Source: a virus (taxonomy: Duplodnaviria > Heunggongvirae > Uroviricota > Caudoviricetes). From it: 9,037 bases of DNA. The stretch spans positions 1 through 9,037 of the IMG/VR virus record IMGVR_UViG_2778261463_000001. The stretch is one strand, 5' to 3'. The notes beneath the pieces are model-generated. The model had not been told where the DNA came from, did not search any database, and saw nothing but the letters and a program-made list of their open reading frames with translations. Within the stretch, counting starts at the first letter, position 1. Each line of letters begins with the position of its first letter. Positions 1-9,037 of the stretch are shown here, one piece after another. A program made the position numbers and the translations under genes.

Positions 1-154
1 TCGAAACGTACTCTCAACAGTTCGCTTAGGCATGGAAGTTTTGCGGCATTCTGGCTACACAATAACAAGGGAAGACTTACTCGTGGCTGCAACCCTACTA
101 GCTCAAAATTTATTCACACATGGTTACGCTTTGGGGAAATTATGAGGGGATCTC

Positions 155-394
155 TCAGCACTCAGCTCGCCCTTCTTCCCGTCTTTTGTCAATATATTCC
201 GCAAGATCCTGAATGTTGATGCAGCGTTTTGCTTTTTGTGATGTACCGATGCGATATGTAGGTACAGGCAACTTACAAGCGTTTGCTTTTGCTTCTGCTG
301 TGGCTGGACTCATACCAAAGTATTTTTGACTAACTGCTGAGAGTTCAATGTTTAGGGTATTGAATTCAGCCATCAGTAAAAACAAGGTGTTCAT
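155..394 (-). CDS. Excisionase-like small DNA-binding protein (Xis/AlpA-like); start uncertain (alternatives 421, 406, 373)
   Basis: Six-frame ORF 155..421. ATG at 394 has GGAG 6 nt upstream. Small basic protein (motifs KLPVPTYRIG, DLAEYIDKRR) as last gene of the leftward operon, the usual xis position. Family assignment from memory only. Confidence 0.5.
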   Translation of the reverse strand: MNTLFLLMAEFNTLNIELSAVSQKYFGMSPATAEAKANACKLPVPTYRIGTSQKAKRCINIQDLAEYIDKRREEGRAEC

Positions 395-430
395 AATTTT
401 CTCCATCAAAACCGGCTGCACCCGGGAAAA

Positions 431-1006
431 TCATAATTCTGTGCTGGTGGCAGGAATTAATTTCTGCCAGATAGCGGAAACATATTTTGCCTGATGACGA
501 GCATCAGCCAGGGCGTTGTGCCGTTCGCCATCGAAAGGCATGTCCATTTTGGGGTCGAATCCGATGGAACGCCCAAGCGTAACGATCGTGCGTACATCGT
601 GGTCATTCCAGTATGCCCACGGGCAGATTTGTCCTGCTCGCTCATAAGCTCCACGTAAAATTACGTTGTCGAAGGTGGCCCCGTTACCCCAGACTTTTAA
701 ATATTTCGTATTGGCTGCGTGCCGGTTAATGAAATGATTTAGTTCTGAGAGAGCATCGCTGATCGACAAAGTATCATCAATACAGATTGCAGCTCGTGCT
801 TCAGGGCTTTGTTTCAACCACCACAGGATGGTATCGCCGTCAGGTGTAGCTCCTTGCCCCATAGCACTTTCCAGGCTAACAACCGTATAGAATTCTTGTC
901 CGATGTCTCCGGTTTCTGGAGTGAAGAACACCGCGCCAATGGAAACGATCGGTGCATCCTTATTTTTCCCCATCGTCTCAAGGTCGATCATTAAGTTGTT
1001 CATCAC
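431..1006 (-). CDS. DnaQ-like (DEDD) 3'-5' exonuclease, prophage exodeoxyribonuclease-VIII-like
   Basis: 191-aa ORF with N-terminal MIDLETMG (Exo I D-x-E motif) and C-terminal H-x4-D (HNALADA). Start overlaps the upstream stop in ATGA (1003-1006). Confidence 0.7.
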   Translation of the reverse strand: MMNNLMIDLETMGKNKDAPIVSIGAVFFTPETGDIGQEFYTVVSLESAMGQGATPDGDTILWWLKQSPEARAAICIDDTLSISDALSELNHFINRHAANTKYLKVWGNGATFDNVILRGAYERAGQICPWAYWNDHDVRTIVTLGRSIGFDPKMDMPFDGERHNALADARHQAKYVSAIWQKLIPATSTEL

Positions 1007-1569
1007 TTCACCTCCTGCGGCGGTTCCGGTAGCGGCATCCAGTGAGTTGCTTGCTCAATACCATTACCCGGCTTAATCGTTGCATCTCCGCGCCGAAAGG
1101 TGCTTCCGGTATAGCGTGCGGAGCATATTAGCGGTTCAACCAGAGAGCTATCGAAATTCACCGAAATAAGCACGTTCTGGCCCTTTTCAGGCATTTGATC
1201 ACTACAGCTTATCCAACTATCCGGAGTTCCCGGAGAGTTGCCATTTACATCGAAGTTAGGCTCTGCGTCCTGAACTAGGAGGATGTAACCATTCTTGGCT
1301 GTATCAAGTTCTAACGCCTCGGTGACGGTGCCGAAATAGCGATTACCTAAATCAGCATCACAAGTGCTTACATCAATGGAAACTTCCATGCCTTCGATTA
1401 ATTCTGGCAAGTTGTAAGTTTGGCTTACAGGCTCGACTTCCAGTGAGGCTAACGCAATCCGTGCCAGTTCTTCCGCTTCTTCTGCTGGCAGTACAACGTT
1501 GCTACCAGGTCCGTATGTTTCGCGCCACTGCTTGATTGTCAGCAGTCGCTCTTTGGTAATAGTGGTCAT
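1003..1569 (-). CDS. DUF551-family prophage protein
   Basis: 188-aa ORF ending in THWMPLPEPP, the typical DUF551 C-terminal signature. AGGA 7 nt upstream of the ATG. ATGA overlap with the upstream gene at 1566-1569. Confidence 0.7.
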   Translation of the reverse strand: MTTITKERLLTIKQWRETYGPGSNVVLPAEEAEELARIALASLEVEPVSQTYNLPELIEGMEVSIDVSTCDADLGNRYFGTVTEALELDTAKNGYILLVQDAEPNFDVNGNSPGTPDSWISCSDQMPEKGQNVLISVNFDSSLVEPLICSARYTGSTFRRGDATIKPGNGIEQATHWMPLPEPPQEVK

Positions 1570-1775
1570 TTGTTAATCCTCAAAACTTTATGCCCGGGCG
1601 CAAAAGCACGCGTTTTGTCTTTGCTTATTCGCCAGCCATCCTTGCGCGCCTCTTTTGCACAGCCAGCCCATGACGTACCTATATACTCACCGAAGTCTGG
1701 CGACTTATATTTGCCATCTGTACACTGGAGGCAATCACAATAGAGATGCATGGTGTAACTTGCAGCGATAGCCAT
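1566..1775 (-). CDS. Small Cys-rich (putative zinc-binding) phage protein, 69 aa
   Basis: Internal ATG at 1775 of ORF 1566..1937, preceded by AGGAGA. The longer form would overlap the Ea22-like gene out of frame. Contains C-x-C-x2-C ... C cluster (HLYCDCLQC...GC). Confidence 0.55.
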   Translation of the reverse strand: MAIAASYTMHLYCDCLQCTDGKYKSPDFGEYIGTSWAGCAKEARKDGWRISKDKTRAFAPGHKVLRINK

Positions 1776-1776
1776 A

Positions 1777-2328
1777 TCACTCTCCTTTGATGCGAATGCC
1801 AGCGGCGCGCTCAGCTTCATTTTGTTCCCAAAACCACTTGTGAAGCGCCATAAGCTTTTCGTCAATCGGTGCATATTTGCGATTAAAGTAGGCCTGAGCA
1901 TCTTTCTCAGATTCGTCCGGCAATTCGCCTGGGCCAAACAGTGTGTTATAAATCCATGCCAGTCCGCTTTTAGCGTCGCCAGTCGATTGCCATTCGATAA
2001 TGGCAGCCTGCATGACCAGAATGTTTTTCCCGATTAATAGGTCCAGTTCTTTGTACCGGTTGCGGATGTATGCATTCTCGCTTTGTAATTCAGCGTTTCG
2101 CTTCTCTGCTGCTTCCAGCTCATCCAGCAGCGCCAAGACGGTGGCAGGATTGGCGGCGGCTATGAATCGTTTATTGGCGCGATTATCTGGTCCTGAGCAT
2201 GATGCTATGTAGTAATTGGCGTTCAGTCCGGCATCGGCAATTACTCCATGGTAGTCATCAGCACACCATTCGCCTGGTGTTGCATTTTCTGCCGCCAGTC
2301 GCAGAGCCTGATAGTTAATCTCGCTCAC
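1777..2328 (-). CDS. Ead/Ea22-like family protein
   Basis: 183-aa ORF with GTG start at 2328 preceded by AGGAGG (6-nt spacer). GTGA overlap with the upstream stop. Coiled-coil-like acidic protein typical of lambdoid ea22-like early genes (from memory). Confidence 0.6.
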   Translation of the reverse strand: MSEINYQALRLAAENATPGEWCADDYHGVIADAGLNANYYIASCSGPDNRANKRFIAAANPATVLALLDELEAAEKRNAELQSENAYIRNRYKELDLLIGKNILVMQAAIIEWQSTGDAKSGLAWIYNTLFGPGELPDESEKDAQAYFNRKYAPIDEKLMALHKWFWEQNEAERAAGIRIKGE

Positions 2329-2564
2329 TGGTTGCCTCCTTTACGGATCTGCGCTGCGATGCGCGAAAAAAAAGACTCCCGCGTATGACTGTTAAGAGCT
2401 GGCGAGAACGCTGCGTTAAGAACGGCAGCATCACAGCCGTCATCGATATAGAGCGCAATTTTTTTCTCCAGGCGCGCTTTGGCTTCCTGCAACTGCATAC
2501 CCCGGCACGCACGCGGGATATACTCAGCAATTTGAGCGATAGATTTTTCGTTCTGTTTAAACAT
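2325..2564 (-). CDS. Hypothetical small phage protein (79 aa)
   Basis: ORF with GAGGTG 4 nt upstream of the ATG at 2564. Packed in the operon with an 8-nt overlap to the upstream gene. No recognisable domain. Confidence 0.5.
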   Translation of the reverse strand: MFKQNEKSIAQIAEYIPRACRGMQLQEAKARLEKKIALYIDDGCDAAVLNAAFSPALNSHTRESFFSRIAAQIRKGGNQ

Positions 2565-2760
2565 GCTTCACCTCGATAGGCTTGATGCTGTCGATCAGCA
2601 GTCGGCGGCGCGTATTTTCTGCAAAGTGGCGGCGTCCGGTTTCTTTGTGGTAAAACTCGTTTTTTCCGACGACCCACATCCGCTTTGTCTGGTGCAGTTT
2701 TTTTACCTGCGGACCGTCTCGGGTGATAACAATTCCTGTATGAGTTTTTATCACGCTCAT
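2557..2760 (-). CDS. Hypothetical small basic phage protein (67 aa)
   Basis: ORF with GGAG 8 nt upstream of the ATG at 2760. ATGA overlap with the stop of the upstream gene (2757-2760). Confidence 0.5.
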   Translation of the reverse strand: MSVIKTHTGIVITRDGPQVKKLHQTKRMWVVGKNEFYHKETGRRHFAENTRRRLLIDSIKPIEVKHV

Positions 2761-3119
2761 TTCTTATTCTCCGGTGCTTTCGGCATTACTGCCCAGTGAG
2801 TGATATTGACGTTTTCAAGGTCCCCGACCTGAAATGTCCACTGCCATTCTCCGGTTTCTTTTTGTCCCCAGGTGTACCAGAGAGAACGCCAGCCAATTAG
2901 CCAGCCTTCTCCGTTAGCATCAAATAACAGAACACTTTCATTTGCTGGTGGCAGTTCAGCTGACACTGGTATTATTTTGTTTTCCAGTGCCGTACATTTA
3001 GCTTCAAGCGCATCGAATTTACGTACCAGGTACTCAGCATTTGTTTCGTTCACTTTCAGATCTCGCGGTATACATTTCCCGCGAAGAAACCCTTCCATTT
3101 CGAAAACATTCATGCGCAT
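2757..3119 (-). CDS. yfdS: YfdS-like prophage protein (120 aa) with DUF551-like C-terminus
   Basis: 120-aa ORF directly downstream of the yfdR-like gene. Length matches E. coli K-12 YfdS as I recall it. C-terminus ITHWAVMPKAPE resembles the DUF551 signature. Confidence 0.55.
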   Translation of the reverse strand: MRMNVFEMEGFLRGKCIPRDLKVNETNAEYLVRKFDALEAKCTALENKIIPVSAELPPANESVLLFDANGEGWLIGWRSLWYTWGQKETGEWQWTFQVGDLENVNITHWAVMPKAPENKK

Positions 3120-3646
3120 TTGCGTAACTCCGATAAATCGTTAAAACGTTCCATAAACATCCCGTAGGCATGACCCGGTGCCAGTGGAATCACGTTGAAC
3201 ATCTCTGTTGCCGGGATGCCTTCCAGTACAGGCCAGAAAGAGCCATCATCAAGCCCGAGATCGCGGCGTTCGGTTGCCAGCATGATGAGATCGGCATATT
3301 TCACGGGTGTACTCATAACTGGGGGTAACCCGTATTTCTCACGGATTACGGCGTCTATTTTTTCTTCCATCCGTTTATAGTCAGGAAGAAGGCGTTTCAG
3401 TGGTGCGGGAATGTCCTGGCAATACGCTTCTGTTGCATCATGCATTAACGCTTCAAAAGCAAATTCCTGCGGCACCAGCTGGCTGCAAAGAACCGCATGT
3501 TGGGCGACGCTGTAGAAGTGCGAAAGATGACCGGCAAAGCGACAGATATTTGAAAGGGAAACCGCGATATCGTTAATATCGATGTCGTCTTTATTTATCT
3601 TGTCATAATAAAAATGCTTCCCGGAAAAAGTTTTAATAAATGACAT
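3110..3646 (-). CDS. yfdR: HD-domain phosphohydrolase, YfdR-like (178 aa)
   Basis: ORF 3110..3673; ATG at 3646 preceded by GGAGAA gives 178 aa. Metal-binding motifs H-x..-HD-x..-D visible (HAVLCSQ...LMHDATEAYCQDIP). Length and context match K-12 YfdR. Confidence 0.7.
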   Translation of the reverse strand: MSFIKTFSGKHFYYDKINKDDIDINDIAVSLSNICRFAGHLSHFYSVAQHAVLCSQLVPQEFAFEALMHDATEAYCQDIPAPLKRLLPDYKRMEEKIDAVIREKYGLPPVMSTPVKYADLIMLATERRDLGLDDGSFWPVLEGIPATEMFNVIPLAPGHAYGMFMERFNDLSELRKCA

Positions 3647-3739
3647 TTTGTTCTCCACGTATATGCACTGCACCGCGCTGAATTCTGGTAAAAGGAAGCC
3701 CTCACCATCCGGTGATTATTGAGTTAATTACGTTTCCAT

Positions 3740-3761
3740 AAATGCCCCCGCAGGGGCATTT
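3740..3761 (-). promoter_or_regulatory. Intergenic GC-rich hairpin between the yfdQ-like and yfdR-like genes (9-bp perfect stem, 4-nt loop)
   Basis: AAATGCCCC-cgca-GGGGCATTT. Only 3 T/U follow the stem on either strand, so at most a weak terminator; could be an RNA stability or processing element. Confidence 0.35.
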
Positions 3762-3773
3762 GCAGTAATGAAA

Positions 3774-4598
3774 TCAGGCGGTGAAAGTACCAATAAAGGT
3801 TTCTACTTTGCTGTCTTTGAATTTCTCAACAAGCAGATCACGAAATTCGTTAGCCATTTCTTCCTGCACCGCTTCCAGCTGAATAATGCGCAGAACCAGT
3901 ACAGGACGATCGCCAGTGATAATGCTGAGGCGTAATTTAAACGGACGTTCTTTCAGACCTTCAAACGGAACGCATTTAAATTCAAATGCCACTGGCATAA
4001 TGTCTTTGGTCTTCGCTTCGACAGACTCCATCAGGGAGCGTTTGCCGCTGAAGTCATTATCTTCAAAATCAGCGGTCTGGTTTGCTTCAATCGTGATTTT
4101 ACGGACTGCCGCAGCCGCTTTTGTTGCTTGAATGGCGTCACCATTAGCATCAAAGCCCACAAGGTAGTCGGCCCAGTCTTCGATCCATTCTGCCAGTGAC
4201 TTCTGGGAGTTACGCTCGCCGTTAACAGACAACAGAGCAGAGAACGGTGCTGTCTTTTTCAGTTTGAGAGTGGCAGTGTTATCTGCGTGACCTGGCTCAT
4301 CAATAGTACCCAGGTTAAGCACACTGACGGCACGCATATTATCGGCATCGATAAAGCAGCGGGTGCCTTCATCTGCAAGATCTTTAGAATAACGGGTAAA
4401 ATCATCGATGCTGGCAGTGGAAAGTGCACCACGGAAACGGAAGCGATTTAAATTAAATTTTTCCAGATCATGAATGCGGAAATTCTCAGGCAATGCCACA
4501 GCATCGGCACCAATCTTACTGATAATTTCATTAACACCCTGAGCAGAAATAAGGGCATGGATTTGATTAATTGCGGTTGCGTCTAAGTTCTGAGACAT
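3774..4598 (-). CDS. yfdQ: YfdQ-like protein (DUF2303 family), 274 aa
   Basis: 274-aa ORF between the yfdP-like and yfdR-like genes. Length and gene order match the K-12 CPS-53 yfdP-yfdQ-yfdR-yfdS block (from memory). Confidence 0.65.
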
Positions 4599-4663
4599 AA
4601 TAAGTCCTCACTATATAAAGATATTCAGTGATGAGATAAATAATCAGTTTATTACGAACGATA

Positions 4664-5026
4664 TTAACGACCTGCTGCGCGGAGTTTTCCGTCAGGTTCA
4701 CCGGCAAGAGTCAGTAATTGTCCCTGGTCTTCCTGCAGAATAGTCAGGCGACCACCGCGATTGACATACATCGGCGTTTCGGTGGTGTCTTCTTCGGAAA
4801 TTTTCCCGCGGTTAGTCGGGCGAATATAAGAGAGTTTGTGTTTGATTTTCACACGGTTCTCATCAAATGGTTCGATTTCCAGGTTGAGTGAGACCTTACC
4901 TTTGGTTTTCGTGTTCATCACACCGGAAGCGACTTCACTGAGAACAGCGCCGATTTTGGTTTCAAATACGCCGCCGTCCAGCTCCCCGATAAATGCCTGC
5001 ACATCAGTACTGCGTTCGCTAGCCAT
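4664..5026 (-). CDS. yfdP: YfdP-like protein (120 aa), first gene of the pL operon
   Basis: ATG at 5026 preceded by GAGGAG (7-nt spacer) gives 120 aa (MASERSTDVQ...). The six-frame extension to a TTG at 5212 runs through a 15-bp perfect inverted repeat and lacks an RBS, so is judged non-coding. Confidence 0.6.
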   Translation of the reverse strand: MASERSTDVQAFIGELDGGVFETKIGAVLSEVASGVMNTKTKGKVSLNLEIEPFDENRVKIKHKLSYIRPTNRGKISEEDTTETPMYVNRGGRLTILQEDQGQLLTLAGEPDGKLRAAGR

Positions 5027-5074
5027 TTTGCTGCTCCTCATCATATCGACCCTGTAAGGTCGGTTGGTTTCTCC

Positions 5075-5163
5075 ACAAAACAGAGAAGAACACCTGCGGT
5101 GGCAGCCGCCCGGATGGATTGGGTTATGAGCCCGTCGTCCGGTGATGCTCTTCTCTGTTTTGT
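5075..5163 (-). repeat. 15-bp perfect inverted repeat (ACAAAACAGAGAAGA / TCTTCTCTGTTTTGT) enclosing 59 bp, in the 5' leader of the yfdP-like gene
   Basis: Arms at 5075-5089 and 5149-5163 are exact reverse complements. Expected number of such repeats by chance in 9 kb is about 0.001. Function (RNA stem, processing site or protein site) is inferred, not shown. Confidence 0.6.
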
Positions 5164-5209
5164 AAAAAGAGCGGTACCAGCCGGAAGCAAGTGTACAAAC
5201 TGGTACCGC
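5164..5209 (-). terminator. Terminator-like hairpin on the pL transcript: 10-bp perfect stem, 19-nt loop, then UCUUUUU
   Basis: GCGGTACCAG (5171-5180) and CTGGTACCGC (5200-5209) are exact reverse complements. On the minus strand the stem is followed immediately by a T-rich tract (plus 5164-5170). The loop is long for a classical intrinsic terminator. Confidence 0.35.
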
Positions 5210-5367
5210 CAAAGCAGTGGCTGTTGTGGTGACCGGTGCTGATCTCCGGCTTGCGGTTATTTCAGACTCTCACGGGCGTTTAATTGCCCCGCCGAACAGC
5301 TCTTTTCCGCAATAGCTGCAATGTCTTTCGCGCATCAGCCTGCGCATTCACCACAACTCTAAAAACA

Positions 5368-5420
5368 AATGTAGGATATCCAACATGTGAGTGTCAAGAG
5401 TTTATGTTGGTTATCCTACA
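5368..5420 (-). promoter_or_regulatory. OL/pL: leftward promoter (-35 TTGACA at 5397-5392, -10 TACATT at 5373-5368, 18-bp spacer) with two 16-bp dyad operators
   Basis: Operators TGTAGGATATCCAACA (5370-5385) and TGTTGGTTATCCTACA (5405-5420). The first is identical to OR1 in reverse complement. Promoter hexamers read on the minus strand. Confidence 0.6.
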
Positions 5421-5437
5421 TAAAAAGATAGGCTCAT

Positions 5438-5463
5438 AAAAAAACCGGGGATACCCCGGTTTT
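5438..5463 (-). terminator. Intrinsic terminator downstream of cI (bidirectional architecture)
   Basis: A7-CCGGGG-ATA-CCCCGG-T4 starting 20 nt past the cI stop. On the minus strand the 6-bp GC stem is followed by 7 U. Confidence 0.7.
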
Positions 5464-5483
5464 GCGATAGTGAGGAAGATGTG

Positions 5484-6137
5484 TCAAAAATCCATTATTA
5501 CTTGTTTGACAAGACCAACTATTCTGCAGTTCTCACCGCATTCAATAGTTTTATAGTTAGGATTTAGTGGGACGAGATACCTGTTCGGCCAGTCCTCAAC
5601 AAATTTTTTGAGTGTCGCTTCTTGCCCACCATTGATATGGGCAACAACGATTTTTCCGTTAATACACTCTGTATCAATAATATCTGGCTCTACGATAACG
5701 ATAGAACCTTCTGGTATCGATGGTGAGCCGAGGGGATTGGTCATTGAATCACCACGGACCCGTAGTGCAAATGCCATTTCTGATACAAGGGCGGTAGTAT
5801 AAACCCACTCTTCAGCATCTTCTTTCCTGACACCAGGCTCCGTCATTGTCCATGAACCCGCCTGAACCCACGAGATGAGGGGGACTTTTTTAACTGCGAA
5901 TATTTCAGGTTTTAGATTTATCTTTGGTTCAGGCGAGCCTTTTCCGCTAACAAGCCACAGAGGATCGCATTTAAGTGCGTTGGCTAGGGCTTGAAGGTTG
6001 GCTCCATTTGGTTGGTAGTCGTCCTTTTCCCATCCAGTAACCGTGACACGGTTCACACCAGTCAAATCAGCCAGTGCTTGTTGTGTCAGGTTCAGTTCTT
6101 TTCGCCTTTGGCGAATACGATCACTCATGTTCATCAT
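5484..6137 (-). CDS. cI: CI-type prophage repressor: N-terminal HTH (XRE family) plus C-terminal S24 LexA-like autopeptidase
   Basis: 217-aa ORF. HTH region LTQQALADLTGVNRVTVTGWE. Probable Ala-Gly cleavage site (VQAGSW). Catalytic Ser in RGDSM and downstream Lys (TLKKF). Divergent from cro across an operator region. Confidence 0.85.
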   Translation of the reverse strand: MMNMSDRIRQRRKELNLTQQALADLTGVNRVTVTGWEKDDYQPNGANLQALANALKCDPLWLVSGKGSPEPKINLKPEIFAVKKVPLISWVQAGSWTMTEPGVRKEDAEEWVYTTALVSEMAFALRVRGDSMTNPLGSPSIPEGSIVIVEPDIIDTECINGKIVVAHINGGQEATLKKFVEDWPNRYLVPLNPNYKTIECGENCRIVGLVKQVIMDF

Positions 6138-6201
6138 GTAGGCAATCCTACCACATGCCCATGTAGGATTCTTGACATTGGCATGTTGGATATCCTACAT
6201 T
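6137..6201. promoter_or_regulatory. OR/pR/pRM: three operators plus rightward promoter pR (-35 TTGACA 6172-6177, -10 TACATT 6196-6201, 18-bp spacer)
   Basis: OR1 TGTTGGATATCCTACA (6184-6199) lies between -35 and -10. OR2-like TGTAGGATTCTTGACA (6162-6177) overlaps the -35. OR3-like TGTAGGCAATCCTACC (6137-6152) abuts the cI start codon. Centre-to-centre spacing is 22-25 bp. Confidence 0.65.
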
Positions 6202-6232
6202 TCTGCTTAACGTAATTTAACGGGAGACAGAA

Positions 6233-6430
6233 ATGCGGAAATCCGACGTGATTAATTATTTCGGCGGAGTTTGTAAAACCGCCGAAGCCCTAGGTATTAA
6301 GCATCCGTCTGTTTCAGAGTGGCCTGAGATTATTCCTGAAGGCCGAGCGTACCAGTTAGAAAAAATTACTAACGGGAAACTGAAAGTTGACGTGTCTTTA
6401 TATCAAAAGACTAACAGTGCTGCGGCATAA
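6233..6430 (+). CDS. cro: Cro-like small HTH regulator (YdaS-type)
   Basis: 65-aa ORF with GGGAGA 5 nt upstream of the ATG, directly downstream of pR. HTH-like segment CKTAEALGIKHPSVSEW. Confidence 0.75.
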   Translation: MRKSDVINYFGGVCKTAEALGIKHPSVSEWPEIIPEGRAYQLEKITNGKLKVDVSLYQKTNSAAA

Positions 6431-6457
6431 AAACACCACAGAAATGAGGAATTAACC

Positions 6458-7036
6458 GTGGGTAAAGAACCTGAATGGAAAGTTGATAAACAACCAGCAT
6501 GGCTGGTGGCAGCAATACGAAGAACGATTGCTGATTTACCTCATGGCTATGAGGAAGCAGCAGAAATTCTTGGTTTGTATAAATCTGATGATATCACCCC
6601 AGCAAAAGATCAATTGCATAACAGACTGCGTAGCGGTGGGGATCAAATTTTTCCACTTGAGTGGGCCATGGTTTTACAGGATGCCAGTGGTACCAGGCAT
6701 GTAACAGATGCAATAGCCCGTCGTAGTAATGGGGTGTTTGTGCCGCTGGTGGTCATTGATGACATTGACAATGGTGACATTAATCAGCGGCTGATGGAGT
6801 CAATAGAATGGATTGGCAAGCATTCCCAGTACTTACGCAAGGCAACTGCTGATGGAGTTATTGACCTGGCTGAGCGTGAGCAAATCGAAGAGAACAGCTA
6901 CCAAGTAATGGCGAAGTGGCAGGAGCATTTAACACTGTTATTTCGTGTTTTTTGTGCGCCGGAAAAGAGTGACGCCCGCGAGTGTGCAGCTCCGGGCGTC
7001 GTGGCGTTTTGTGTCTGTGGAGAAACTAACGCATGA
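6458..7036 (+). CDS. CII-like regulator (YdaT-type), 192 aa
   Basis: GTG start at 6458 with GAGGA 8 nt upstream. Sits immediately after cro, as in the cI/YdaS/YdaT modules of Rac-like prophages. Family assignment from memory. Confidence 0.6.
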   Translation: MGKEPEWKVDKQPAWLVAAIRRTIADLPHGYEEAAEILGLYKSDDITPAKDQLHNRLRSGGDQIFPLEWAMVLQDASGTRHVTDAIARRSNGVFVPLVVIDDIDNGDINQRLMESIEWIGKHSQYLRKATADGVIDLAEREQIEENSYQVMAKWQEHLTLLFRVFCAPEKSDARECAAPGVVAFCVCGETNA

Positions 7037-8103
7037 ACAGTTTAACGGCAAATAACCGTTGGTCGCAACAGCTGGTGGTCCGCGTGGCTGAACACCTGTT
7101 GTTACGGCATGAATGCAGATTACCAAATCACCTGGCTGTAAGTAACCACAGAGAACTTTACCTGACTGTGGGGGGCGAGTTGTGCAGGAACTTAACCGCT
7201 GGTTTCGTGACGGAAGAGGGCTTTATGTTCATGTTATTCGTTGGGAACCAGAAACACAGCGCGTTATCTATCTTCGCAAAGACTACCCGCATGAGTGCTT
7301 TAGTCCTTTGTGGAAATTCAGGCGTGATTTTGTTGAGTGTGAAGGACCACCAGCACATTGATTCTGCCATTCCGGGACGTTACACTGTTCAGGCACCTTA
7401 TAAAGCGGGTGCCGGGATTGGCGTCCTGAAATTGATTACTGAGCATAACCGCGCTCATGCGGTTTTTTCGTGTCATGAGCATTGCTACGCCCAAATTATG
7501 GTGGGGCGTACAGGGCCGACTTCGGTCGGGCCGGGTTCGGTAGTCTCCGGTAACGCCAACCCTGTACGTCTCACCACCTCTGTGATTGGCGTCCCATGTG
7601 GTGAGTTTTCTAAAAAACTGACTACCGGGGCTGTCACCATGACTACTCTCCCAACCCTCTCTCAACCTGAAATTGCCATCGTTGATGGTCAGGCTGTTAC
7701 ATCTTCTTTGGCTGTTGCTGACTTCTTCTCTAAACGTCATGACGATGTTCTGAAAAAGATCCGCATTTTGGATTGTTCTCCAGAGTTTTGTGCCCGCAAT
7801 TTTGCGGAGACATCAATTTTGGTACGCCAGCCCAACGGCGGTACTCGCAAACTTCCTTGCTACCAAATCACACGCGACGGTTTTGCGTTTCTTGCTATGG
7901 GTTTCACGGGTAAACGTGCTGCCCAGTTCAAAGAGGCATATATCAATGCCTTTAACCAGATGGAGAAACAGCTTTCAAAGCCCGCTGTACCGAGCGACGT
8001 TGCACATAACGCCAGCGTTCTCTGTTCCTACATTTCATCAATTCATCAGGTCTGGCTGCAGCAGCTTTATCCCGAAAGGGAAGGTCGAGATCACTATCAG
8101 TAA
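7033..8103 (+). CDS. Rha-family phage regulatory protein (long form): ~200 N-terminal residues of unknown function fused in frame to a C-terminal pRha domain
   Basis: 356-codon open frame whose ATG overlaps the cII-like stop (ATGA at 7033-7036). Residues from about 7639 match the Rha core (KRHDDVLKKIR, ITRDGFAFLAMGFTGKRAAQFKEAYINAFNQME). Alternative starts at 7498 or 7639 would give 201 or 154 aa. Confidence 0.5.
   Translation: MNSLTANNRWSQQLVVRVAEHLLLRHECRLPNHLAVSNHRELYLTVGGELCRNLTAGFVTEEGFMFMLFVGNQKHSALSIFAKTTRMSALVLCGNSGVILLSVKDHQHIDSAIPGRYTVQAPYKAGAGIGVLKLITEHNRAHAVFSCHEHCYAQIMVGRTGPTSVGPGSVVSGNANPVRLTTSVIGVPCGEFSKKLTTGAVTMTTLPTLSQPEIAIVDGQAVTSSLAVADFFSKRHDDVLKKIRILDCSPEFCARNFAETSILVRQPNGGTRKLPCYQITRDGFAFLAMGFTGKRAAQFKEAYINAFNQMEKQLSKPAVPSDVAHNASVLCSYISSIHQVWLQQLYPEREGRDHYQ
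7447..7468 (+). terminator. Terminator-like hairpin (AACCGC-gctcat-GCGGTT followed by a T-run) inside the long ORF
   Basis: 6-bp stem with 6-nt loop; six consecutive T at 7463-7468. Weak stem, and it lies inside an open reading frame, so it may be fortuitous. Confidence 0.25.
7499..7576 (+). other. Strand-specific RNA stem-loop element: 17-bp closing stem with two G-U pairs enclosing a CCGAC-UUCG-GUCGG tetraloop hairpin
   Basis: 7499-7515 pairs with 7560-7576 (15 Watson-Crick plus 2 G-T pairs, so it folds only as plus-strand RNA). Inner hairpin 7516-7529. Tandem imperfect 15-nt repeat GGGCCGACTTCGGTC / GGGCCGGGTTCGGTA. Confidence 0.4.
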
Positions 8104-8153
8104 GTATGAGAAACCGGCGGGTGCAGCCGCCTGATTAAGAGGAGAAACGAAGT

Positions 8154-8963
8154 ATGAATAATCTGATAGTTATTGATGGTATTGAAGTTCGTCGTGATGC
8201 TTATGGGCGTTACAGCCTGAACGATCTGCACAGGGCAGCCGGGGGAGAACAAAAAAACCGCCCGAAATACTGGCTCTCCAATAAGCAAACCTGTGAATTG
8301 ATTGAACAACTTTTCACCGAGGGTGAAATTCCGCCTCTGGAACAAAATCAACCAGTTAGCGTCATTAATGGCGGAAATAACCAGGGGACGTATGTCTGCA
8401 AAGAACTGGTGTATGCCTATGCAATGTGGATCAGCCCGTCATTCCATCTGAAGGTGATCCGTACTTTCGATATGGTAACCAGCGCACCGGAAAAATTATC
8501 CGGGCAGGCTGCTGACAAGATGCAGGCTGGTGTGATTCTGCTGGACTTTATGCGCCGGGAGTTAAACCTGTCTAACTCTTCAGTGCTTGGTGCCTGTCAG
8601 AAACTCCAGGAGGCTGTTGGCTTACCGAATCTGGCACCGCGCTATGCCATTGATGCTCCTGCTGACGCGCCTGATGGCTCAAGTCGCCCTACGCTGTCGC
8701 TGAGTGCACTGCTGAAACAGTATGGTATCCGCCTTACGGCTAATCAGGCATATCACCAGATGGCGAAGCTGGGGATCGTTGAACAACGCGAACGATACAG
8801 CCGTACCACGATTAACAACATCAAAAAATTCTGGTCGCTGACAGCGAAAGGTTGCATGTTCGGCAAGAACATCACCAGTCCCGCAAATCCGCGCGAGACG
8901 CAGCCGCATTTCTTCGAATCCCGATTCCCTGAGCTGTTAAAGTTGCTCGATACCGTTCATTGA
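8154..8963 (+). CDS. KilA-N domain protein (putative antirepressor or host-interference protein), 269 aa
   Basis: AGGAG 9 nt upstream of the ATG. N-terminal KilA-N hallmarks: VIDGIEVRRDAYGRYSLNDLHRAAGGE...NRPKYWL and ELVYAYAMWISPSFHLKVIRTFD. Confidence 0.75.
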   Translation: MNNLIVIDGIEVRRDAYGRYSLNDLHRAAGGEQKNRPKYWLSNKQTCELIEQLFTEGEIPPLEQNQPVSVINGGNNQGTYVCKELVYAYAMWISPSFHLKVIRTFDMVTSAPEKLSGQAADKMQAGVILLDFMRRELNLSNSSVLGACQKLQEAVGLPNLAPRYAIDAPADAPDGSSRPTLSLSALLKQYGIRLTANQAYHQMAKLGIVEQRERYSRTTINNIKKFWSLTAKGCMFGKNITSPANPRETQPHFFESRFPELLKLLDTVH

Positions 8964-8970
8964 GGTGACC

Positions 8971-9037
8971 GTGAGAGCACTACTGACCCCTGAAATTGCC
9001 CCGCGTATGGGGATCGTATTGTTCAGGCCAGGTTCAG
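8971..9037 (+). CDS. 5' end of a further rightward gene (partial, runs off the window)
   Basis: GTG at 8971 preceded by GAGGTGA; open to the window edge (VRALLTPEIAPRMGIVLFRPGS...). Too short to assign a product. Confidence 0.3.
   Translation, partial: MRALLTPEIAPRMGIVLFRPGS

Follow-up and report, generated by a model that had tools for sequence, protein, structure and literature searches.

A predicted isrK/C4-type RNA switch and a long open reading frame upstream of a Rha-family gene in a lambdoid prophage

Results

Gene order and the long open reading frame

The window analysed here is the whole 9,037-nucleotide (nt) stretch of the IMG/VR virus record IMGVR_UViG_2778261463_000001 (positions 1 to 9,037), and the subject of this report is a single long open reading frame (ORF) that leads, on the plus strand, from the end of a CII-like regulator gene into a gene of the Rha family. 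The window is a segment of an Escherichia coli lambdoid prophage of the e14/SfV/ST64B type, with 98% identity to E. coli O111:H8 and to phage 1720a-02. An S24 repressor gene (5484-6137, minus strand) is followed by cro (6233-6430), by ymfL (6458-7036, plus strand), by the long frame (7033-8103, plus strand) and by a gene for a KilA-N domain protein (8154-8963, plus strand; Pfam PF04383, E value 6.7e-27), which probably lies in the same transcription unit as the long frame. The ymfL gene is a 192-amino-acid (aa) ORF with matches to NCBIfam NF041471 (178 bits), to PHROG 101 ('CII-like') and to Pfam CP76, in agreement with the cII-like gene that an initial annotation, made from the letters alone, had placed here. 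Its TGA overlaps the ATG at 7033 as ATGA (7033-7036), an arrangement that would couple translation of the long frame to that of ymfL.

From its start at 7033 to its stop at 8101-8103, the long frame counts 356 codons and passes from a ymfM-like leader, through a stretch that holds DUF4222, isrK and C4 sequences, into Rha. A single open frame with an ATGA start had been reported at these positions by the initial annotation and is confirmed. The 606 nt of 7033-7638 have a G+C content of 51% and a stop probability of 0.046 per codon, from which a naive analytic calculation gives a probability of 7e-5 for 202 stop-free codons, close to the value of about 1e-4 estimated earlier. Because this probability is so small, and because the remaining five frames carry 8-16 stops over the same interval, we regard the open frame as real and not as a product of chance.

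For comparison, we gathered 80 IMG/VR loci with YmfL as the query, a choice that is neutral toward the long frame, and added nine annotated phage or prophage loci, K-12 e14, P4 and Gifsy-1. The same frame is open in most relatives, including E. coli prophages and phages mEp460, ST64B (about 80% nucleotide identity), SfV and 1720a-02, and these relatives annotate it as one 'Rha family' protein of 384-388 aa.

Two RNA genes and their paired sites

Two RNA genes lie within 7033-7638, both on the plus strand. The first (7393-7469) is a small RNA of the isrK/seqA/a1b1 type (Rfam RF01394, 59.3 bits against a gathering score of 50), which ends in an intrinsic terminator located by a terminator scan (stem 7447-7464 followed by a T run) and carries two short sites, b1 (7418-7424, TTGGCGT) and a1 (7434-7441, GATTACTG); on the same RNA the c4-a1b1 model (RF03163) reaches 21.6 bits, below its gathering score of 46.7. 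The second (7494-7581) is an antisense RNA of the C4/CI type (Rfam RF01695, 82.3 bits against a gathering score of 45), matched over the full length of the model (1-87). It bears the site a' (7538-7545, CGGTAGTC), which forms the loop of hairpin 2, and the site b' (7553-7559, ACGCCAA). The C4 fold, a long closing stem with two internal hairpins, comprises 27 pairs, and 100% of the 378 cells are paired across 14 sequences, P4 among them. Eleven of these pairs have changed on both sides, no shuffle out of 500 attains the value observed, and controls in which the fold was slid along the sequence reached at most 48% paired.

C4 is followed by a target and leader region (7586-7638, plus strand), recognised by co-variation, that contains b2 (7586-7592, TTGGCGT), a2 (7620-7627, GACTACCG) and a Shine-Dalgarno sequence, GGGG (7627-7630). 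In the window, a' pairs with both a1 and a2 at 8 of 8 positions, and b' with both b1 and b2 at 7 of 7. An alignment of the 30 unique cassettes found in the sample reveals a three-way co-variation, with 10 a-types and 2 b-types, in which the sites of C4, of isrK and of the downstream region change together; cognate a-sites pair at 7.84 of 8 positions, as against 4.23 of 8 for non-cognate ones.

A candidate promoter for this RNA module (7358-7386, plus strand) can be read from the sequence, with a -35 element TTGATT (7358-7363), a 17-nt spacer and a -10 element TACACT (7381-7386), which would place the start of transcription at about 7393. It is conserved in the module alignment and is the positional homologue of PisrK in Gifsy-1 and of PLE in P4, and from this homology of position we infer a σ70-like promoter near 7358-7386 that would drive the isrK RNA.

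The start of the Rha gene

The Rha core occupies residues 223-312 of the long frame (PF09669, E value 4e-27). Read from the ATG at 7639, the gene (7639-8103, plus strand) encodes a Rha-family regulator and putative antirepressor of 154 aa (Pfam PF09669, 95.1 bits against 29.9; TIGR02681, 93.5 against 45.95), in which the match begins at residue 12; the antirepressor role is taken from family names only (PHROG 'anti-repressor', 'transcriptional regulator'). All 30 modules have in common a Shine-Dalgarno sequence (GGAGG in most types, otherwise GAGG, or GGGG in the window), an 8-nt spacer and the start ATG(G/A)CTAC, and the same pattern precedes both SfV orf37, which has a non-Rha C-terminus, and P4 kil. 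The a2 site overlaps or abuts the Shine-Dalgarno sequence, 8 nt before the ATG. We take ATG 7639 to be the regulated start of Rha because of this position of a2, because the Shine-Dalgarno sequence and ATG are conserved, and because the Rha hidden Markov models match within 12 residues of this Met. The design is the one known from P1 c4 and P4 CI, in which an antisense RNA covers the ribosome-binding site and a second copy of the target, or a decoy, lies upstream.

An earlier in-frame start exists at 7498. From there, an ORF equivalent to Gifsy-1 orf45 (7498-7638, plus strand) extends for 47 codons, with its ATG at the 5' end of C4 and the same ATGGTGGGGCGT start as in Gifsy-1; it is in frame with Rha and has no AUGA ending. 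Both candidate starts named in the initial annotation are thus meaningful, 7639 as the conserved start behind a Shine-Dalgarno sequence and 7498 as the counterpart of the first AUG in orf45 of Gifsy-1. We hold it highly probable that the locus contains an isrK/C4 RNA switch and that Rha starts at 7639.

We also observed that, by comparison with a closely related locus (L002, 2650-2850), a deletion of about 146 nt, bounded by two TATCC(C/T) repeats, has altered the 3' end of the window's Rha gene (8060-8103). Through the resulting frameshift the protein ends in ...YPEREGRDHYQ at 8103 and not in ...KYEKTAGAAA at 8134; the core is intact.

The ymfM-like leader and the overlapping DUF4222 gene

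The first part of the long frame (7033-7371, plus strand) is assigned as a ymfM-like leader by its position, which is that of e14 ymfM, by a match to PHROG 1170 (E value 4e-8) and by the ORF maps. Relatives have here an ATGA-coupled ORF of 108-115 codons that begins 'MNSLT...', and the window is without the stop that ends the ymfM part elsewhere. Codons 1-20 of the long frame have a weak coding-like periodicity that is found nowhere else in the leader, and 7093-7181 has no periodicity and is barely alignable between clades. Just inside the start of the frame lies an inverted repeat, AACGG-caaata-ACCGTT (7044-7060), around which different clades share the pattern AGTTTAAC...ACCG...CGCA in their nucleotides; the repeat could be a protein-binding site or a coupling hairpin.

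Within the leader, in a different frame from the long ORF, is a DUF4222 gene of 59 codons (7182-7361, plus strand), whose GTG start is preceded by the Shine-Dalgarno sequence GGGGGG (7170-7175) (Pfam PF13973, 51.1 bits against a cut-off of 27, E value 9.5e-14; PHROG 1343, E value 1e-36). The Shine-Dalgarno sequence and the start codon (ATG, GTG or TTG) are kept in all 33 loci. Over 7182-7361, column entropy at the three DUF4222 codon positions is 0.52, 0.44 and 1.00, with its peak at position 2 of the long frame; the DUF4222 frame is, on this pattern of variation, the one under protein-level selection. A programmed frameshift from the ymfM start into DUF4222, of which a fusion in phage 118970_sal3 might have been a sign, was set aside in view of the conserved Shine-Dalgarno sequence and start that DUF4222 has everywhere.

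The e14 gene itself (K-12 locus L091, 3323-3661), annotated as 'cell division inhibitor YmfM', wholly contains a DUF4222 ORF in another frame. It resembles the window in its position, in its ATGA coupling to ymfL, in its 'MNSLT' start and in this overlap, but its frame ends after 112 codons, just before a replication gene, and it is not followed by an isrK/C4/Rha cassette. Substitution periodicity favours the DUF4222 frame and not that of ymfM. Which of the overlapping frames encodes the e14 SfiC/YmfM division inhibitor, and causes filamentation, is a side question here; in the ymfM preprint the whole ORF was cloned, and a term search of the preprint found that neither DUF4222 nor start codons nor western blots are mentioned.

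The region upstream of Rha as a protein sequence

The initial annotation had raised the prospect of an undescribed N-terminal domain fused to Rha, and had proposed profile searches and structure prediction as checks. Apart from Rha, the sole Pfam match in the long frame is Phage_ASH (PF10554, 43.3 bits against 26) at residues 117-212, which corresponds to nt 7381-7668 and hence to isrK, C4 and the leader region. AlphaFold2 gave no confident fold for residues 1-202 (predicted local distance difference test, pLDDT, of 30, with no residue above 50), which is weak evidence, as a single sequence was used without an alignment. Column entropy over 7368-7638 is flat across the codon positions of the long frame (0.54, 0.56 and 0.58). 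Beneath the supposed domain there are instead the DUF4222 gene and two Rfam RNAs, which the initial annotation had overlooked together with the Phage_ASH match, and its upstream part is a mosaic that is exchanged between relatives.

A further match of Phage_ASH is to an obsolete P4 ORF, the 'cI gene product' (P4 locus L090, 931-1122), where it falls exactly on the CI RNA. To follow the C4 family beyond close relatives, we used a genome-wide pattern scan, which returned many chance matches in unrelated phyla, and then a covariance-model filter, which retained 39 true copies; in 25 of these 39 copies, from other genera, the frame stops inside C4 or just after it. With no codon periodicity, and with stops in this frame in those 25 copies, the Phage_ASH stretch fails as a sequence under amino-acid-level selection, and we conclude from these comparisons that the family is, in all likelihood, largely the translation of an RNA module. 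The name 'ash family protein' used by NCBI is apparently likewise built on translations of isrK/C4 modules, and PHROGs 821, 3960, 995 and 6928 include the stretch. The 606 nt before the Rha core are, as far as sequence can tell, a regulatory cassette and not a domain. The other option in the initial annotation, mis-joined genes, comes closer to the truth, except that the joining looks functional and not accidental.

Modular layout among relatives

The ATGA-coupled 'MNSLT' frame and the DUF4222 gene are present in every ymfL locus, and the isrK-C4-regulator cassette in part of them only. The isrK and C4 genes always co-occur, at a fixed spacing; they are found in every related locus that has a Rha or 'ash' gene and in none of six loci without such a gene. 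What follows the cassette varies. In most loci it is Rha, but SfV has an unrelated C-terminus there (orf37, with the annotation 'immunity region'), P4 has kil, and Gifsy-1 has a gene for an ORF6N protein.

Several individual loci illustrate how these parts are combined. One prophage (L016, from IMG/VR) has two tandem isrK-C4-Rha cassettes, at 3484-3669 and 4347-4535, which differ in their a-site specificity (ATGTGCGA and CGTTGACG). A second IMG/VR locus (L053) carries, about 414-806 nt past the ymfL stop, a gene for a ProQ/FinO-family RNA chaperone (Pfam E value 1e-13); its place directly upstream of the isrK-C4 cassette, an RNA chaperone beside an antisense-RNA switch, is suggestive. In a P4-like satellite on a Salmonella enterica chromosome (L168, 2312-2935), an 'ash' frame of 207 codons passes through isrK and C4 and then overlaps, in a different frame, a real 76-aa gene that is preceded by a2 and a Shine-Dalgarno sequence. 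The long frame and the regulated gene thus need not share a frame.

Maintenance of the open frame

Over the 265-271 nt upstream of ATG 7639, the frame of this ATG has no stop in 29 of the 30 unique modules, and the other two frames have 0-7 stops per module. The lengths of those 29 modules (271, 268 or 265 nt) differ by multiples of 3. We then asked how often the freely varying specificity sites would leave the frame open. With all 65,536 specificity 8-mers enumerated in the context of the window, the chance that a random a-type keeps the long frame open is P = 0.58, and the openness of all 10 observed types has an approximate P of 0.0044; for the a1 site alone, which is upstream of ATG 7498, the values are 0.68 per type and about 0.02 for 10 types.

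Two loci have a gene inserted between DUF4222 and isrK: the ProQ/FinO gene of L053, in another frame, and a SWIM gene on the opposite strand in L074. The long frame is open across both, with approximate P values, from synonymous randomisation given the protein sequences, of 0.014 and 0.045 respectively. It is also open across DUF4222 in 13 of 13 lineages (P = 0.2-0.36 each). Three different recombinant junctions bring the cassette into frame with a start that has its own Shine-Dalgarno sequence, namely that of a replication gene (L015, L016, L018), of a small gene (the second cassette of L016) or, elsewhere, of the ymfM frame. A frame kept open without conservation of its sequence is the signature of a region where being translated matters and the product does not. 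The suggestion of the initial annotation that the stretch is not open by chance and is probably translated gains support from the a-site test and the two insertion tests, which are independent of one another and point to selection for an open frame.

Other features of the window

A strong hairpin, AAAACCGGGG-ata-CCCCGGTTTT, lies within 5396-5478, just downstream of the end of the repressor gene, and is probably a bidirectional terminator; a sub-threshold Rfam match to 'Termite-leu' over the same interval (E value 0.5) was rejected, the hairpin being terminator-like. A tRNA scan of the window found none.

Discussion

We suggest that the long frame is a route by which ribosomes may reach Rha from the early operon in spite of an RNA-based immunity. 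The sequences compared above show the parts of the switch and how they complement one another, the conservation of the start and the maintenance of the frame; the steps of the switch would follow by homology with P1 c4, P4 CI and Gifsy-1 IsrK. In a lysogen, with the early promoter off, the promoter at about 7358-7386 would make the short isrK RNA together with some read-through transcript, from which C4 would be processed. C4 would then pair with a2 and b2, block ribosome entry at 7639 and perhaps provoke termination, and the isrK RNA could titrate C4. After induction, on transcripts from the early promoter, ribosomes that have finished ymfL would start again at 7033 and go on translating across the DUF4222 region, the isrK terminator and C4, so that the terminator and the C4 structures would be prevented from forming. 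Such read-through would render the expression of Rha and of the downstream KilA-N gene insensitive to C4 immunity, and the N-terminal extension would be a by-product with no conserved sequence. The long frame is hence most likely an eta-like read-through frame. For the read-through role itself, which we draw from P4 eta and kil together with the stop-avoidance statistics, we lean in favour without strong conviction; to the explanation as a whole, which combines the RNA switch, the start at 7639 and the read-through role, we would assign a probability of about 0.65.

A number of observations weigh against this explanation. The 25 of 39 C4 copies with a closed frame belong to other genera, and the family as a whole thus does not require that C4 be translated. 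Among close relatives, the frame is broken by frameshifts in L008 and L029 and by a 1-nt deletion in L055, and in L015, L016, L018 and L074 it stops at the end of the ymfM part, where an in-frame ATG just after the stop permits a restart. Homologues with a stop between the two parts, to which the initial annotation had looked for a refutation, thus do occur, alongside the open frame of most relatives. The lineages used in the tests of openness share ancestry, so that their P values are approximate, and ATG 7033 would need to compete with the DUF4222 start on the same messenger RNA. A promoter scan of 6950-7700 returned no site at threshold, and TTGATT-17-TACACT has only 8 of 12 matches to the consensus.

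Could the frame be open for no reason of its own? In the first alternative, nothing upstream of 7639 is ever translated, the frame is open only by way of the constrained sequence beneath it, namely a gene in another frame and structured RNAs rich in G+C, and the long protein is an annotation artefact that has been propagated from record to record. This would sit well with the fact that the RNA genes and DUF4222 account for all of the nucleotide conservation, with the lack of codon periodicity in the long frame, with the frameshifts and closed frames just mentioned, and with a second frame that, in some types, is likewise free of stops for 106-135 codons across the RNA module. It would leave to coincidence, however, that positions free to vary are stop-free in 10 of 10 a-types, that the frame persists across two unrelated inserted genes, that module lengths differ by multiples of 3 and that the ATGA coupling is kept in every ymfL locus; moreover, the homologous frames in P4 (eta) and in Gifsy-1 (orf45) have experimental precedents for translation. 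We therefore consider a pure artefact unlikely.

A narrower alternative would confine translation to the leader that starts at ATG 7498, as in orf45, with the openness of 7033-7497 being incidental; the leader might open the structure and deliver ribosomes to Rha, or it might yield a Rha protein with 47 extra residues. ATG 7498 is invariant, it is the homologue of an AUG that has been shown to be used and to be required for anrP translation, and in Vibrio copies of the module (L135, L142) the open frame leads from the ATG of C4 to the gene downstream and does not extend upstream of this ATG. Nevertheless, the a1 site, the DUF4222 gene and the insertions of L053 and L074 all lie upstream of 7498 and all are crossed by the open frame, ATG 7498 has no recognisable Shine-Dalgarno sequence, and the frame that functions in P4 is the long one, eta, with its coupling to the gene upstream. 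We rate this alternative a shade lower than the preceding one. Finally, that residues 1-202 form a genuine undescribed N-terminal domain of a 356-aa Rha regulator is very improbable and is already contradicted: the frame is long and kept open, and database families such as Phage_ASH and PHROG 821 have been built on it, but its most variable sites within the DUF4222 interval are at its own codon position 2, it has no periodicity over the RNA module, it is assembled from exchangeable modules, its pLDDT stays at 30 across all 202 residues, its Ash profile coincides with RNAs of proven structure, and a conserved Shine-Dalgarno sequence and ATG stand at 7639.

In the boldest form of the read-through explanation, selection would have kept everything between the ymfL stop and Rha in this frame as a conduit for ribosomes, with being translated as its sole function and the overriding of RNA immunity as its effect. 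We advance this form only tentatively and would not count it as probable. If it were true, ribosomes would cross a DUF4222 gene, two small RNA genes, a terminator and inserted cargo such as ProQ/FinO and an antisense SWIM gene, the ymfM of K-12 e14 would be the same conduit frame, and the real effector could be the overlapping DUF4222 protein.

The main practical value of this analysis lies in the correction of a widespread annotation. A protein of 380 aa, named 'Rha family' or 'ash family', stands in thousands of prophage records from E. coli, Shigella and Salmonella, and its first 200 residues would be a translated RNA switch together with a small gene read out of frame. The isrK-type RNA, the C4-type RNA, DUF4222 and the start of Rha at an internal Met are usually missing from such records, and Pfam Phage_ASH and several PHROGs seem to have been built on translations of the RNA module. 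More broadly, the comparison points to the RNA immunity cassette of the P4/P1 type as a portable module, with at least 10 specificity alleles, that controls antirepressor-type genes.

All elements of the cassette come from known families, and its architecture has direct experimental precedents. What is new is its placement after the cII-like gene of lambdoid prophages with Rha as the effector, the number of specificity alleles, and the statistical evidence for a frame that is kept across an overlapping gene and inserted cargo. In P1, icd is the first ORF under such control and begins downstream of c4, and no long ORF through c4 is known to have been described in this phage. The c4 RNA of P1 and P7 belongs to the same RF01695 family as the C4 of the window and, as described in the literature, has the same logic of two short loops against duplicated target pairs, with the downstream pair at the ribosome-binding site of an antirepressor operon and with the loop setting the specificity of immunity. 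In the immI region of these phages, c4 is an antisense RNA that controls icd-ant by way of a1/b1 and a2/b2 (Citron and Schuster 1990, as cited in PMC7313666).

The isrK-orf45 (STnc1160)-anrP segment of Salmonella Gifsy-1 also resembles the window. It has a promoter (TTGACA-17-TATATT) at the same position, IsrK with its terminator and with sites complementary to the C4 loop, a C4-like RNA overlapped by an ORF with the ATGGTGGGGCGT start, and a regulator of the Bro/antirepressor network. Its orf45 is translated and is needed for anrP translation, it is conserved in nucleotides and not in amino acids, and IsrK acts in trans (Hershko-Shalev et al. 2016, PMC4825925). The differences are that orf45 has 45 codons and ends in an AUGA over the anrP start, whereas the frame of the window is fused to Rha; that AnrP has an ORF6N domain and not Rha; and that the Gifsy-1 cassette follows antQ in the late region, in contrast to the position of the window's cassette after a cII-like gene.

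P4 provides a close parallel for the long frame. The immunity region of this phage-plasmid comprises seqA, the CI RNA and seqC, with eta and kil as nested genes (Forti et al. 1999, as summarised in PMC10111431). According to the part of PMC10111431 that cites Forti 1999, P4 has a constitutive promoter inside eta, Kil is the truncated form, and translation of eta from an upstream promoter prevents the immunity-dependent termination. In the P4 sequence, we found a frame of 197-199 codons that begins at ATGATGATG over the stop of the alpA-like ORF88, in an ATGA-type coupling, runs through seqA (isrK in Rfam) and CI (C4 in Rfam) and shares its phase with the start of kil, which lies 65 codons before the end of the frame. 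Both P4 and the window thus have a long ORF that begins in an overlap with an upstream stop, passes through both RNAs and contains an in-frame internal start 55-57 nt after C4, and the GGAGGCTGCCATC-ATGGCTAC start region and the first 10 or so codons are homologous; this likeness is one of sequence anatomy. Unlike that of P4, the cassette of the window is set in a lambdoid early right operon of the e14/SfV/ST64B kind, after cro and the cII-like ymfL, it controls a Rha-family regulator and not kil, and its 356-codon frame also crosses an overlapping DUF4222 gene. Translation from an early operon that bypasses RNA immunity has so far been known only for P4, and the evidence that the reading frame of the cassette is kept while its protein is not makes the idea directly testable.

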